DNA from: Catajapyx aquilonaris
Lineage: Eukaryota
Assembly (NCBI GenBank): GCA_000934665.2
Contig: KZ538932.1
Span: 1 to 39,664 of the forward strand
Reading direction: 5' to 3'
Length of the DNA: 39,664 bases
The translations under genes and the position numbers were made by a program. Shown here piece by piece: positions 20,821-35,680 of this stretch; position 1 is the stretch's first letter, and each line of letters starts with the position of its first letter. The notes below the pieces were generated by a model that had not been told where the DNA came from, searched no databases, and worked only from the letters and a program-made list of their open reading frames with translations.

Positions 20821-21205
20821 GCACAAGCCAAATGATCCCAAAGTGAGAAGTGAAATAGAGTTATTGCCTCTCTGTGGATCACTTACTCTTGAGAAAGTAC
20901 CTGCTTGATATCCCTGTGAAATTATTGTGTGACATGGTAATGAATGTTATATCGCATTGTGCAGATTCTTGCATTGAACTCTGTGCTAATGCTATCATGT
21001 TAGTTTAGAAAGTGATCTAGATTTTTTTTCTGCAAGATTTGTGAATGCAATTTGTTACACACTAAAAATGGCATATTCGAAAAGGAAACAATGTGGCATG
21101 TAAAATTGGAAGGACTTTAAACTGATTCATAAGTCATGATGTTTCCAGATAATCCAAACTTCAGGTCTGGTAAGGGAGAAAGGTTCAGAGAAAGCATTGT
21201 CTTAC

Positions 21206-21372
21206 GTAGCTATGGAGAGAAAATCCTTGAATAGGGCTGTTGGGATGGCATTACAATGGGGTTCGATGGGCAACATATCCTCTGTCTCCTTCCCATAGAC
21301 ATGTATGAAGTCATGAAGCTGCTTTGCAATGATAGCTGCTCGGTCTTTTCTGGACACAGAGTCGTCTAAAGC
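21206..21372 (-). CDS. TTLL5: TTLL5 exon (ALDDSVSRKDRAAIIAKQLHDFIHVYGKETE...)
   Basis: AG/GTAAG sites, phase 0 to 2; matches recalled TTLL5 [20 protein letters not shown]. Confidence 0.9.
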
Positions 21373-21448
21373 CTGAAACACATGCTAGGTTAGGAATTTC
21401 TGGAGCATTCTATATTAGTCTGATGCTGCAATGGACACTGGAGCTAAC

Positions 21449-21602
21449 CTGGATTACACCTGGCTCCCTGACTGTCATAGCTGCCCTCTGGACAAACTGA
21501 CCAATCCGGTCCTGCTTTTGTGTGTCATCCACATCAAATGTTCTCATGTCCATAAGAGCATATTGCAAATTCTGTCCAAAGCACTTGCGCAACTGGTACT
21601 TA
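21449..21602 (-). CDS. TTLL5: TTLL5 exon (KYQLRKCFGQNLQ...FVQRAA)
   Basis: phase 2 to 0; matches recalled SKMQARIAFSAYLQ...RFLKRAS. Confidence 0.85.
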
Positions 21603-21673
21603 CTGATTAAGTGAGAAAGAAATTTTAAAAAGGTGTTACTTAGTTATTAAATTAATTCATTTCTGTTTCTTAC

Positions 21674-22233: not shown

Positions 22234-22684
22234 CTTTATTGTGGTGTAGTGAAAAGATGTTGCAAGTGACATCATAATCCCGATGACATCCTTTCAGTGC
22301 AGGTGTGTGTGGATACCTCTTCCTTGAAAGCCTCTGCACCTGTGGGAACCACATGCTGTCCTCTTGCTGCTGAAGTGCTATCTCTAATGCCCTGGCCAAT
22401 CCTCCCTCTGAATCCTCAGGGCCTGGTCGTCTACCACTACCTCCAGATTTTATGGTGAAGAAATCCCCAAACAGGAGCTCCTGTAGTATTAAGTTACGCT
22501 CCGCTGATGTGTCCAAGAAGTCTTTATATTTTGACCAAGCATCAGGGGCAGGAAAGATCAGGACATAACCTCCTCGCCGCTCCAATTCCTCCTTAACAGC
22601 TTGAGCTGTGCGAATATCTTCAGTAGTGGCTGGGACTTGGTTGCCAGACAACGAGCAAGCATCAAGAGATACAGACCGCCGACC
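22234..22684 (-). CDS. TTLL5: TTLL5 exon (GRRSVS...KEELERRGGYVLIFP...)
   Basis: TGCAG acceptor, AAG|GTAATG donor; matches recalled KEENDRRGGFIRIFP motif. Confidence 0.88.
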
Positions 22685-23170: not shown

Positions 23171-23403
23171 CAGACTGACTTTCTTTGCATTCTTATTCTT
23201 GGATGGTGACTTTTCTAAGGTTGACATCCGTCGAAGCACAGGATCAACAGCTGGGACACCAACCAATGTCAGAAGGTCAGTAATCATACATGCTTTAACC
23301 TTCACATCAAGGGGAGCATCACAACCCAGGGATGGGGATAGGTTCACTTCTAGTAGCCATGGCTTCAAGTTTGCATCTATGAGGATGTCAAACCCATACA
23401 ACT
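23171..23403 (-). CDS. TTLL5: TTLL5 exon ([10 protein letters not shown]...LEVNLSPSL...)
   Basis: TTL catalytic motifs; phase-1 acceptor; two in-frame GTCAGT donors after 23180 and 23171. Confidence 0.95.
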
Positions 23404-24342: not shown

Positions 24343-24542
24343 CAAAACAGTTCTTCCGGTGAGGCACAAACATCTTTGTAGCACTAATAATTGGCCTGGA
24401 AGCAGATATGATGGCCTTGATTACTATGTCCTTCACAGCCTCAAGTAGTTTTGATGTGTCCTTTCCCATCTTCTGGAGGTGGCGCAGCAAGGCACTGAAG
24501 CTCCATTTGTGTCCCATGTCCTCTGAATTGGTATCCTCACAC
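24343..24542 (-). CDS. TTLL5: TTLL5 exon (CEDTNSEDMGHKWSFSALLRHL...KNCF)
   Basis: phase 2 to 1, 200 nt; matches recalled GNKWSMSAMLRYL. Confidence 0.95.
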
Positions 24543-27321: not shown

Positions 27322-27686
27322 AATTCTTCATGGTGATGAGCAAATGGGTCCAGCAGGCAATACAATTTGATCTACCACTAGTTGGGGTGGGTGGGCGGGA
27401 TGTGCGTGTGTGGGGTGTGGGTGTGGGTGGTGTGTGCTTGGCTCTGTGTTCTTGTTTGTCCAGAAAAGCCTGTAATAATAATTTCAATCCAAAATACTGC
27501 ATGGATGCAATACACCAACTTTCAGTTGCAGCTATATTCTGCACAGGAAGAGGCAATAGTCAATTGACCAGTGTTATGGCAGTTATTTTTAAGAATTTCA
27601 AGCAACTCAGCCTTCCATGTACAATGAATTAAAAATAACAAAGCTGTCATGAGTTACACTAACCTGACTCGTTCTATAATATCTTA

Positions 27687-28422
27687 CCATATTACCTCAC
27701 TTAAAGCGGCATGCCGGTGTAGTCGAGGTCAACCAGTTATTAGAAATGCACGATCTGGTGGCTATACCGGCATGCCGGTCTCAGCGAGGTATGCCGATAT
27801 AAGGCGAGGTTTCCTTACGATCTCCATGAAAATTATTATTACTCAAAGGAATGCATTACACCATGTTCTACGGTACAGACACAGCCCAGGATACTTCTCT
27901 CGCCTAACACATCCCATAAGATCGTTCGTTAAATTCAAATTTTACGGCAACATTTTCAATTAAAAGTGCAGGGCTGCTAGAAGGGAAGCATACCTACCAG
28001 GATATTTCATGTGTTTGGTTTGAATTTTATTATCTGAGTAACGAGGCTTCTCAGACAAATTGACACCACTACACAAAGTGATCTCATTGCTAACGAGATC
28101 TGCGACCAGCGAACTATTGATAGCAAAACAAAGGACTGAAGGAATTTGTGTTGATCCTTTGCAGATCCTTTATAATGTTTAGGGGGGTTCCCCTCTCAGA
28201 GCAGGCTGACAGTCAGATTTGTCACACTCTATGCCCTGTGCAACAGATGAACTTCCATATTCTCACAGCCCTGTACTTGCACATTTTTCACCGTAACATG
28301 ATTTTAGTTGCATTCCAAAAAAATTGAGAAGGATCAAGATTATGGAAATCTACCCTGGGTACTGCGGTATGCCGGCCAGCCACGGGTTATACAGGCATGC
28401 CACTTTAAGTGAGGTAATATGG
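27687..28422. mobile_element. pogo/Tigger-like non-autonomous element
   Basis: TA TSD; CCATATTACCTCACTTAAAGCGGCATGCC / GGCATGCCACTTTAAGTGAGGTAATATGG. Confidence 0.8.
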
Positions 28423-28553
28423 TACAATTTTTGATACCTTCAAACACCACTATGGTTTCAAATAATTGGCCATTGGCAGAAAAATTTTAACCACGTAATG
28501 GATTTTTCAAGTGATTTTCTAAGCAAGACTTTAAGCTATATTATGTAACTCAC

Positions 28554-28810
28554 CTGATATAATCAGAGTGGTACTTGTTGATACTATAGTTGCACAAATG
28601 CATACAGGGATTCCATAAGTTCTTCCTAGAATAGTCATACTTAACAGTTGCTATTCTGACCAGGCCCTCCTCATACATGTATATGACTAGTGGTTCATAT
28701 GATGTAACAGCCACATAGAGGCGCAAGTCACACTTGTGGCCATCGACCAACAGAGGGTTTGAAATGTACTTTGCCACGACCACCTGATCATCAGCTGGCA
28801 CTTCATCTGG
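28554..28810 (-). CDS. TTLL5: TTLL5 exon (PDEV...KCDLRLYV...MHLCNYSINKYHSDYI)
   Basis: TTL-domain motifs; phase 0 to 2; AG|GTGAGT donor. Confidence 0.96.
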
Positions 28811-28876
28811 CTGTATTGGAAACAAAACAGCAGTTGTGACACCCGGTATGCTTGAAGCAAATCCCAGTTAACTCAC

Positions 28877-29090
28877 ATGATTAACAATGTAAATCCCTCT
28901 TCCTTGTGACGAGGCAACAGGCTTCACTATCCAAGGGCCTCGAACCCGATTGTGTGCTGAACATAAGCTCCCAAAGTCAGATGGTATCAAAAAAGTCATT
29001 GGGATAAAGTTAAAATGCTTCATTCCACGAGTATGTTGCATCTTCTCGATATTCTTGTACAGACGATCCTTCCTGGTCAGCTCATACGAC
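28877..29090 (-). CDS. TTLL5: TTLL5 exon (SYELTRKDRLYKNI...WIVKPVASSQGRGIYIVNH)
   Basis: very close to recalled TTLL5 sequence; phase 2 to 0. Confidence 0.96.
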
Positions 29091-29153
29091 CTAGAAGGTT
29101 GTGTGATATACAGTAATTTCCAAGGCATTTTTCTACCTAATAGAAAAACATAC

Positions 29154-29260
29154 CTGGGAAAGTGATTTATCCTTTGATGAGCCATCAATTCTTGCAAATG
29201 GTTTGGCTTTGGGTGAATGCCTGCCCACACTAAGTTGTACTCTAGGGCAGTGGGATGAAC
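29154..29260 (-). CDS. TTLL5: TTLL5 exon (VHPTALEYNLVWAG...INHFP)
   Basis: matches recalled VHPSSTDYNLMWTG...VNHFPR; CCAG/GTATGT sites. Confidence 0.93.
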
Positions 29261-29821
29261 CTGGCAGAAATAGCATCAGTCATAAGATCTTCAATGTGAC
29301 TTAATTCAACCAACATAAGCTAAGGCCTTATAAGTGTTGCATAATTCTAAAGGAGAGGAGTTGCACAAAAACACAAGTCCGTAATGGAAAAAATAACAAA
29401 ATTATACATTGCATATTCAGTTTTTAGTTTCAAACCTCCTAAGAATTTCAATTTACTTTTTCCCATCTTCCCATTGGCTCCTAGTTGAGTGAATGACCTC
29501 TTAGTGGGAAGTATCTTTAGTCTCATATCTGCAATGAGTATATGATGCAAAATTTTACATTAAACGTGTCACTTACTGAGTATGGCAGTCTACATACTAA
29601 ATCTGGGCAGAGATACCGGGAGAACCATTAACACAATGAATATACAAAGTATACTCTTCATGATTGCTTTGGTGCAGAATGGTCTTTCTTACCTTGACAT
29701 CCCAATATCGTTCTGCCTGCTGTATGACTTTAATGCCCACTGCTGTAACTTATACTGATTTATGAAACTATCCACAAAAATGCAAGATTATTGTGCCCAT
29801 AAAATACTCATGGGAAGGTGA

Positions 29822-29948
29822 GGGATGGGGAGAGAGAGGGGGGAGCCCAAGAGAGAGGGAGAGGGGGAGAAAGGGGGNGGGAGAGGGAGAGAGAGGGAGA
29901 GGGAGAGAGAGGGAGAGGGAGAGAGAGCGAGAGAGAGAGAGAGAGAGG
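29822..29948 (+). repeat. GA-rich simple repeat
   Basis: (GA)n/(GGGA)n tract. Confidence 0.9.
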
Positions 29949-30409
29949 CCTTATGGAAGTATGCCGAGACCAGCCTTTCAAATGCTTCGGCTCTTAGGAT
30001 TGCTGAGGCTCTTATATACAGAGGTGTCTATAACACATAATGCAACACAAGTGCATTGCCATCTTGATGATACCTCTGCAACAAATGCGTCTCTTGTACT
30101 TTGTCTTTGTCATTTTGTGTCCAACTGTTCAGAACTGAATGATTTTTATCATTACTTGCTACAATATTAATAATAGTTTAATGAGGGAAAGGGGCTCTTA
30201 AAATATGGCATGTATTTGTGCACCAATTCTCTGATTGACCTTGACATGTACTGGAGTTTGGAGATTCTATTATTCCATAAATCACAATTCCCAAGGATAA
30301 GTCACTTGAAAGAGCAGCAGTATTTAAAGAATGCCTCTAAACTGAACCTGTTTAAGAGGGAACTGACATTGAAACAAATAAAACAATAGCTACTAATCAC
30401 ATCATCTAT

Positions 30410-30703
30410 ACCGAAGCAGGTTGGCATAGTGGATAAGGCGTCCGACTGCTAATTGGGAGGTCCTGGGTTCGAATCCCGGGGCCGGCAACTCTGACCGTGG
30501 CTTTCTGTGGTTTCCCACGGTCCTTCCAGGAAAATTCCGGAGTTGCTTCCGTAATTAATAGGCCACAGCCGCTTCCTTCCGTCCCTATCCTATCCCAAAA
30601 AGCACAGTAAAATGAAAGCAAAGAGTTCCAGGCAAAACAAAACTTCCCCCCTAAAGAGCCGACAGGCTGATAACGGGGTATGCATTATGCATTATTATTA
30701 TTA
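30410..30703 (+). mobile_element. tRNA(Ser)-like-headed SINE
   Basis: A box, B box GGTTCGAATCC; (ATT)n tail; likely TSD TAATCACATCAT / TAATCACGTCAT. Confidence 0.88.
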
Positions 30704-33815: not shown

Positions 33816-34042
33816 TCTCAAAGCCCATCAACAGGGAGGCAGTTAATAAAATTGAATATATTTCAAAAGATACTCTCAGATTTCAATGAAAATCAAACAC
33901 CTATTAAAGAGGTGCCTCCAAACACCTACTTCAGGGCAAGTATTGAACATTAATAGGAAACTTCACAAGTTGTCAGTCACAGTAATCCAAAGAACAATGT
34001 TCAACATGCTCTTTGTACCTCTCTTGCTCACAGTTGAAAACA

Positions 34043-35680
34043 ATGGCCCCACGCAAGCAGCCCACATCTCTGCACATCCTATGCCAAACATCAGCTGCGC
34101 TGCACCTGTCTACAGCCTGTGACACTCTCCTGCAGGCTGCACAGGAGACATCTACTGCACATGTTCTCCAGCGGCTCTCCTCTACCTGGCGACCCTACTA
34201 CGAGAATGTCCTTCCTCCATCTGAGCGAGCTGCCTTGATTAATATGTGCTCACAGTCTCTCTCCAAGAAGACCTCTCTTTATGGCACAGATGATACTGCT
34301 GGACGGACACTTCTTTTTGTGTTATCGGTGCTTCTGGACCCAGGGATACGAGACTTGCGAGTAGTCCTATGTTGCTATTATGGCTGTAGTGATCAGGAAC
34401 GCATGTTGCATTTGCTGAGGAGGCATGGCAGTGGCCTTCAGCAACTGCAATTCTGCCGCTCATCATTACTAAGGCTGGATCGTGATTTGTTTGCAGATGT
34501 GCTGTCTAATGCATCTGGGTTGCAGGAACTTTCTATGCGAAACATTGCAACGGATTCTGTCCTTGATACAATTGGAAGATGTTGCCAATTACTCCGTAAA
34601 TTGGATGTTTCACATTCAAAGCAAGTAACAGATGCAGGTGTAGAGGAACTGTGCCTGCGCATACATTTTGAGGATAATGATTCTAAAGAAACACCTCGTT
34701 CATGTTGTTGGTCATGGGTAAGGCGTCGGAGTCCCGAGGATGTATTGTTGCGTGTTGTCAATGATCGTAATCCCCTGTGCAACTCATTGCTAGAACTTCA
34801 CTTGTGTGAAACATCTGTGACACATCTTGGGTTGCGGGTTGCCTTGATAGAATTGCCAAAACTAGAAACGTTTGGTGGGTGTTCAGATGTTGCATCAGTC
34901 ATATACACAACTGTCACAAAGCATCCTTTGGTTTTATCACTTGTGAATGTGACAGCAGTCAAATCACCAATTGAATACATTGAGGCAGTACTGCAACACT
35001 GCCCACACCTACGCCGCTTGTCAGTTGTCGAGCCACGATTCTTATTTGGTCTCCTTCCAAACGTACCTGCCTTAACATCATTCAAAGCAACAGCAATTCC
35101 ACCACACCCACGCGTTGTCACAGACCTGACCCATTACATCTTGCAAATGGACAGGATGTACGAATTAGAACTTGACTTTGCATCTGATGTGCTCCTGCCA
35201 CCCCTTAACATATTGGAACTGTCTCTACCAAAGCTGTCATTACTGCGGATTTCCAATGCAAGCCTGTTTGCTAGCCCTCCTCCTGAGCAGACCTGCCAAC
35301 TGACACATGTTCATCTGGGGCACACTGTTCGCAATGAGGTCTTGTCACACTTGTTATATTGTGCTCCATCACTCCGGTCCTTACATCTACGCAGCTGCCC
35401 AAACCTGACTGACCATGTGCTTGCTCAAGCATTAACCCTCAGGCCACATCACCAACTCCGCTGCTTTTATGTGTATGAGGCCCCATCACTGTCTCTGGCA
35501 TCACTATATGCTGTACTGAGTGACCTGCCTGAAATTATGGGAGTAGGAAACCTGCGTAAATGGGGTGGGGTGGACTGTGAGGACGTAAGGAGATTTGCAC
35601 AGGATGTTGTCAAAGGCCAAAACCTCAATGTGGAACTGCTTTCTGGAGCACACTGGTACTCTTATAATTGCTTTGACTAG
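34043..35680 (+). CDS. 545-aa leucine-rich-repeat protein (FBXL/AMN1-type LRRs) with BC-box-like N-terminus; single coding exon
   Basis: 1638-nt ORF from ATG 34043; LRRs such as CQLLRKLDVSHSKQVTDAGV and APSLRSLHLRSCPNLTD; pyrimidine tract and CAG acceptor ending 34033; AATAAA at 35929. Confidence 0.9.
   Translation: MAPRKQPTSLHILCQTSAALHLSTACDTLLQAAQETSTAHVLQRLSSTWRPYYENVLPPSERAALINMCSQSLSKKTSLYGTDDTAGRTLLFVLSVLLDPGIRDLRVVLCCYYGCSDQERMLHLLRRHGSGLQQLQFCRSSLLRLDRDLFADVLSNASGLQELSMRNIATDSVLDTIGRCCQLLRKLDVSHSKQVTDAGVEELCLRIHFEDNDSKETPRSCCWSWVRRRSPEDVLLRVVNDRNPLCNSLLELHLCETSVTHLGLRVALIELPKLETFGGCSDVASVIYTTVTKHPLVLSLVNVTAVKSPIEYIEAVLQHCPHLRRLSVVEPRFLFGLLPNVPALTSFKATAIPPHPRVVTDLTHYILQMDRMYELELDFASDVLLPPLNILELSLPKLSLLRISNASLFASPPPEQTCQLTHVHLGHTVRNEVLSHLLYCAPSLRSLHLRSCPNLTDHVLAQALTLRPHHQLRCFYVYEAPSLSLASLYAVLSDLPEIMGVGNLRKWGGVDCEDVRRFAQDVVKGQNLNVELLSGAHWYSYNCFD

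Follow-up and report, generated by a model that had tools for sequence, protein, structure and literature searches.

The window, by which we mean the whole analysed stretch of 39,664 nucleotides from Catajapyx aquilonaris (contig KZ538932.1), carries on its minus strand a multi-exon gene that homology identifies as TTLL5. Insect, copepod, and malacostracan TTLL5 queries (tblastn) matched collinear minus-strand blocks between 29269 and 21205 that are free of stops and frameshifts, and the core joined from its exons comprises 328 residues, likewise with no stop. The features of the gene are listed below; in splice-site and junction strings, a slash marks the splice point.

29154..29260, minus: exon a, VHPTALEYNLVWAGIHPKPNHLQELMAHQRINHFP-R; acceptor CAG/GTT, donor AG/GTATGT; boundaries predicted from the sequence
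28877..29090, minus: exon b; Pfam TTL, 9e-16; contains the Gln site and TRKDR, whose Lys contacts ATP
28924-28895, minus: loop motif KPVASSQGRG (KPVASSRGRG in relatives), from translation and homologue comparison
28906-28904, minus: Gln codon CAA, equivalent in position to TTLL6 Q180, mouse TTLL5 R188, and Drosophila TTLL5 R339
28554..28810, minus: exon c (P0001 region), with DLRLYV; Pfam TTL, 1.8e-33; 3' junction to exon d contained in a contig of run X5
24343..24542, minus: exon d, CEDTNSEDMGHKWSF...PHRKNCF
23186..23403, minus: exon e, placed by homology alignment; 3' end not fixed
23353-23333, minus: LEVNLSP, its second Leu (23341-23339) aligned to TTLL6 H362; catalytic Glu and Asn retained
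22415..22684, minus: further TTLL5 block downstream, ERRGGYVLIFPAPDAW...; limits from tblastn, approximate
~21440-21643 and ~21205-21375, minus: two TTLL5-specific C-terminal blocks, KDRAAIIAKQLHDFIHVYGKETE...; approximate tblastn limits

The TTLL5 gene and its surroundings

Exon b, which lies between an AG acceptor and a GTGAGT donor, reads ...GPWIVKPVASSQGRGIYIVNH; its translation (71 codons from 29089, minus strand) is SYELTRKDRLYKNIEKMQHTRGMKHFNFIPMTFLIPSDFGSLCSAHNRVRGPWIVKPVASSQGRGIYIVNH. Exons b and c both exceed the gathering score of the TTL ATP-grasp domain (Pfam PF03133), and the catalytic motifs TRKDR, DLRLYV, and LLEVNLSP are all intact. Every catalytic residue of TTLL5 listed in the available text of Bao et al. 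(mouse K131, R225, E366, and N368; PMC10335831) is kept, and the loop Arg of TTLL5 (mouse R188/Drosophila R339, beta6-7 loop) is replaced by Gln. This Arg is a conserved functional residue rather than a defining criterion for the TTLL5 orthologue group.

An RNA-like contig of 391 nt from run X5, which stems from another sample and another study, covers 28551-28698 and then continues with window letters from 24539 downward. It joins exon c to exon d (...YIR/CEDTNSEDMGH...), from which we conclude that the TTLL5 gene is transcribed and spliced; the contig ends at 28698, short of the Gln codon. At the other end of the gene, neither tblastn nor an HMM of 106 N-terminal segments gave a match upstream of 29260 in the window for homologue residues before ~128-129, and the corresponding exons may be too diverged or located beyond the window.

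Word-indexed protein searches with exon c and exon b as queries returned 451 and 1848 proteins, respectively, and the best 120 of each were examined; because the exon c query does not contain the switch site, the sample that it draws is unbiased there. Named matches in these best 120 of each are nearly all insect or copepod TTLL5 or TTLL5-like proteins, with identities of up to 84%, and a few dipteran and moth proteins carry other automatic names ('ttll-4', 'beta-tubulin polyglutamylase'). The top identity anywhere, across three word-indexed searches and a full HMMER search of protein collections, was 80-84%.

We placed the gene using an IQ-TREE quick tree of 70 rows of TTLL5-like proteins (332 columns, switch-site column removed), which covers TTLL5-like diversity only and leaves out named TTLL4, TTLL2, TTLL6, and TTLL9 outgroups. 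The window row groups with insects, two copepods, and Artemia in a set of 20 rows (SH-aLRT 98), and the enclosing 24-row set (SH-aLRT 96) adds a barnacle and three malacostracans. The TTLL5 names of the best matches, the supported clade with insect and copepod TTLL5, and the collinear C-terminal blocks all identify the gene as a TTLL5 orthologue, in agreement with an earlier annotation made from the DNA letters only (hereafter the sequence-only reading).

The rest of the gene is closely similar to that of its relatives. Arg-type arthropod TTLL5s (n = 125) define 128 columns of ≥98% conservation, at 5 of which the window deviates, namely by the Gln itself, the conservative changes D>E, L>F, and M>L, and, as the fourth of the other changes, E>K. 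The same count is 10 in the barnacle, 22 in Artemia, 16-32 in malacostracans, and 0-3 in 40 randomly chosen members. By this measure, the TTLL5 of the window is slowly evolving and constrained, and Gln stands out from the alignment as the sole radical change within the catalytic pocket. This pattern argues against a decaying gene.

Several other elements accompany the gene. Upstream of exon a, an Rfam tRNA match lies on the plus strand at 30416-30487 (36.4 bits, above the gathering score); since its translated flanks have the look of a repeat derived from a tRNA, this may be a SINE and not a functional tRNA gene. Also on the plus strand, opposite to TTLL5, an intronless open frame of 564 codons occupies 33986-35680. 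In Pfam it gives no more than a leucine-rich repeat match below threshold (LRR_6, 16.9 bits, where the cut-off is 23.4). The frame may represent a gene of its own, which could be nested within, or adjoin, the undetected 5' part of TTLL5. The long intron between exons c and d holds an inverted repeat pair (27678-27721/28388-28431; 44 nt, 86% complementary, 666 nt apart) that resembles small transposon ends, with related palindromic copies at 27693-27791. Contigs of three DNA runs (X1, X2, and X4) all stop near 28395, consistent with a repeat at that place. A GA/GAGA microsatellite at ~29800-29950 holds the run of N in the window, and it is at this microsatellite, near 29863, that the run contigs stop.

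Glutamine at the switch position and its distribution

The exon b translation confirms the loop KPVASSQGRG with CAA at 28906-28904, as described by the sequence-only reading, which had also placed this Gln at the residue that separates branch-initiating from chain-elongating glutamylases. That placement is upheld by phmmer alignment to PDB chains, in which the Gln falls on TTLL6 Q180 (8t42_N numbering) and the engineered Q180R chain 6vzq has Arg, and by the role given to Q180 in the available part of the preprint by Mahalingan et al. (bioRxiv 10.1101/2020.06.07.139295). The second determinant had been called initiase-like, and the PDB-chain alignment agrees: the TTLL6 motif around H362 reads LEVNHSP in the wild type and LEVNISP in the mutant, whereas the gene has LEVNLSP, with a Leu opposite H362 that is not elongase-like. 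Elongases of the TTLL6/13 type would be expected to carry His or some other neutralising side chain there or nearby.

Among close relatives, Arg at this position is invariant. The best-120 lists of the exon c and exon b searches together gave 182 proteins, 165 of which contain KPxxxxXGxG, with Arg at X in 165/165; in the other 17 the models are truncated at the N-terminus or the motif is otherwise absent. Short fragments (n = 73) comprised 59 with Arg, 7 with Gln, and 7 in which the motif is absent. When the full HMMER search (1.84 billion representatives) was considered, its best 150 matches comprised 120 with Arg, 23 with Gln, 1 with Cys, 1 with Asn, and 5 in which the motif is missing. The top 84 of this set are 83 Arg-type proteins and one fragment without the motif, and Gln starts at rank 85, at identities of ≤63%.

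Cluster look-up identified Gln bearers in three malacostracan orders (Oratosquilla oratoria 'TTLL5-like', Hyalella azteca 'TTLL5', and Meganyctiphanes norvegica 'TTLL5'), in the land snail Bradybaena similaris, in the chytrid Chytridium lagenaria, and in further lineages. Arg bearers include the barnacle Pollicipes, Artemia, amphioxus, and the snail Bulinus, which is the sister of the Gln-bearing snail in the tree. Changes between Arg and Gln number at least 5 on the 70-row tree. Gln was not seen in insect, copepod, branchiopod (Artemia), or barnacle TTLL5, and is present in 3/3 malacostracan TTLL5s. This patchy distribution indicates that Gln-type TTLL5 is a recurrent natural variant and no one-off. 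The natural hybrid proposed in the sequence-only reading is therefore weakened as a singular case: Gln is absent from insects, copepods, brine shrimp, and the barnacle, and present in the three malacostracans and the other lineages. The related question of whether Gln is common in arthropod TTLL5s receives a similarly divided answer (no in 165/165 close relatives, yes in all 3 malacostracans).

Two further observations concern the diversity of TTLL5-like sequences. Fragments P0240, P0242-P0246, and P0248 (metagenome, Logan) represent two TTLL5-like exon lineages with Gln, KPVASSQGKGIFLINH and KPPASSQGRGIYLINH. Besides canonical TTLL5, the gastropods Candidula (P0345) and Bulinus (P0366) have another paralogue that bears the TTLL5 name but is diverged, its loop reading KPV(S/G)LSRGRGV; it follows that TTLL5 was duplicated in molluscs.

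Reality and possible consequences of the replacement

Logan contigs of runs X1, X2, and X4 (word depths 26.8, 22.7, and 17.1, respectively) match the window with 0 differences over 28400-29400, and all three carry CAA and none CGA. These runs represent one sample (S1), probably the source of the assembly, and hence are not independent of it; five runs cover the stretch in part, and the site itself is covered by this one sample only. In the DNA of that sample, CAA is a genuine germ-line Arg-to-Gln replacement, an assembly slip being ruled out by the agreement of the three runs. A sequencing or assembly error hiding a true CGA could draw on the draft state of the assembly and the 21 N in the window, but with three separately assembled run contigs in full agreement it is exceedingly improbable. 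Alternatively, Gln might be a deleterious allele that is private to the sequenced individual or line, or polymorphic, and has not reached fixation in the species. Such an allele would suit the facts that S1 supplies all DNA evidence at the site, that the contig of the second sample stops before it, and that the nearest protein in the collections is only 80-84% identical. Against it, the three run contigs carry the A with no variant listed, although contigs lose minor alleles and a heterozygous or rare second allele is compatible with them, and the fixation of the same change over three malacostracan orders makes a fixed state plausible; we consider a private allele unlikely.

The ancestral Arg could also be restored, fully or in some tissues, by A-to-I editing of CAA to CIA in the mRNA, for which one A-to-G change suffices, CIA being read as Arg. 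The stable imperfect duplex expected of an ADAR Q/R site was not found in the local fold, among inverted repeats, or in a 5-kb duplex scan. Around the site, 291 nt fold no more stably than their shuffles (z = +0.47), and the 22 inverted repeats in 27400-30400 all lie clear of 28895-28925. The best duplex of the site with 5 kb of pre-mRNA reaches -30.9 kcal/mol, falling short of the mean for 60 control adenosines (-33.9 kcal/mol), 65% of which do as well or better. The Q/R editing switch floated in the sequence-only reading thus lacks structural support, and we regard it as very unlikely.

What the residue does is best described for TTLL6. According to the available sections of Mahalingan et al. 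(bioRxiv 10.1101/2020.06.07.139295), TTLL6 regioselectivity is determined above all by Q180, whose equivalent in human glutamylases is Arg in the presumed initiases TTLL2, 4, 5, and 12 and Gln in the elongases TTLL1, 6, 9, 11, and 13, class lists that agree with the rule as it had been stated for this locus; glycylases split likewise into Arg and Gln types. In the initiation geometry reported there, Arg reaches the carbonyl group on the acceptor glutamate to form a hydrogen bond and Gln is too short (5.7 vs 3.2 A), and the TTLL6 double mutant Q180R/H362I is an initiase nearly equal to the triple mutant. The accessible text of a later paper on TTLL11 (PMC12366701) again names Q180 as the primary determinant. 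For TTLL5 itself, the available text of Bao et al. (PMC10335831) equates Drosophila R339 with mouse R188, within KPAASSRGRG/KPVASSRGRG, and reports for the CRISPR allele R339A that both the glutamylation of alpha-tubulin and the refinement of Staufen localisation are impaired in vivo. A search of full-text literature, in which few subscription-journal papers are covered, found no mention of an R-to-Q TTLL5 variant or of a crustacean TTLL5.

In the window, an acceptor-positioning loop residue of a transcribed TTLL5 orthologue has changed from Arg to Gln with the catalytic core otherwise kept; had the earlier codon been CGA, one CpG-type transition would account for CAA. Gln would be expected to stabilise the gamma-linked (branch-initiating) intermediate less, and the alpha-linked (elongating) one should fit better, so the predicted enzyme would be poorer at starting branches and relatively better at extending existing chains. 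Because the position of TTLL6 H362 still holds a hydrophobic Leu, as in initiases, the shift would be only partial, toward chain extension, or the enzyme would simply be a slower initiase. We put the probability that Gln brings about a real functional shift of TTLL5 at roughly 0.5.

The main competing view is that the replacement is real but near-neutral or merely weakening, yielding a slower branch initiator that other TTLLs buffer, with the division of labour unchanged. The at least 5 origins of Gln on the 70-row tree suggest that the site tolerates change, the second determinant remains initiase-like, and R339A flies are viable with impaired glutamylation (available text of PMC10335831). 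On the other hand, Arg in all 165 motif-carrying close relatives and in 83 of ranks 1-84 points to strong constraint under normal circumstances, and the replacements in the HMMER best 150 are dominated by the elongase residue (23 Gln vs 1 Cys and 1 Asn), so that we find a near-neutral change possible but somewhat unlikely. Even a change with an effect may amount to a plain hypomorph with unchanged selectivity, since the only in vivo datum in that text, R339A, mainly lowers activity. A lone change in the direction opposite to the TTLL6 engineering could also do little, because the engineered switch, as given in the available sections of the preprint, needed the second residue too (Q180R/H362I).

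Returning to a functional shift, a broader scenario would connect the Gln-type proteins of Malacostraca, this arthropod, the land snail, and others: recurrent Arg-to-Gln flips would have turned TTLL5 into, or toward, a chain extender, leaving initiation to TTLL4/TTLL2-type enzymes. We hold this scenario to be rather doubtful; if true, it would amount to a natural rewiring of the division of labour in tubulin glutamylation. The residue is presented in the available structural work as the main determinant of starting versus extending both glutamate and glycine chains, cleanly split between the classes, and Gln-type TTLL5 orthologues offer a natural, engineering-free test of this Arg/Gln rule. 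Elongation by these orthologues would mean that the rule predicts function from sequence and that the role of TTLL5 varies among arthropod groups; persistent initiation would make the rule context-dependent.

Comparison with known TTLL5 and TTLL6 enzymes

The gene shares with insect and copepod TTLL5 (Drosophila CG31108; also mouse and human TTLL5) the same TTL ATP-grasp core, the motifs TRKDR, DLRLYV, and LLEVNLSP, and the collinear C-terminal blocks, and is 75% identical to Blattella TTLL5 over 266 tree columns. It differs from them at the switch, where they have Arg (Drosophila R339, mouse R188) and the window has Gln.

Malacostracan TTLL5 (Hyalella azteca XP_018026863.1, Oratosquilla oratoria XP_076045386.1, and Meganyctiphanes norvegica CAL4124144.1) has Gln at the same position, and two of the three proteins have LEVNLSP, as here. 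These proteins are far more diverged, with 16-32 mismatches over 129 conserved columns compared to 5/128 in the window, and two of the three read QGKG where the window reads QGRG. The quick tree sets the window row apart from the malacostracan clade, but an AU test did not reject a single clade of the window and the three malacostracans (p-AU 0.418, lnL difference 3.5). None of the other four conserved-column changes of the window is common with malacostracans, which is weak evidence for independent origins of Gln; one origin and two are both compatible with the sequences.

TTLL6 (mouse; PDB 6vzt, 8t42), a structurally defined alpha-chain elongase, has Gln at 180 in ...QGRGI..., as does the gene described here. 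It belongs to a different subfamily, its identity to exons b and e is low (E about 1e-7 to 1e-11), and it has H362 where the window encodes Leu. Of the elongase-type (TTLL6/13) features, the TTLL5 of the window therefore combines a Gln at the Q180 position with a Leu in place of the His at the H362 position.
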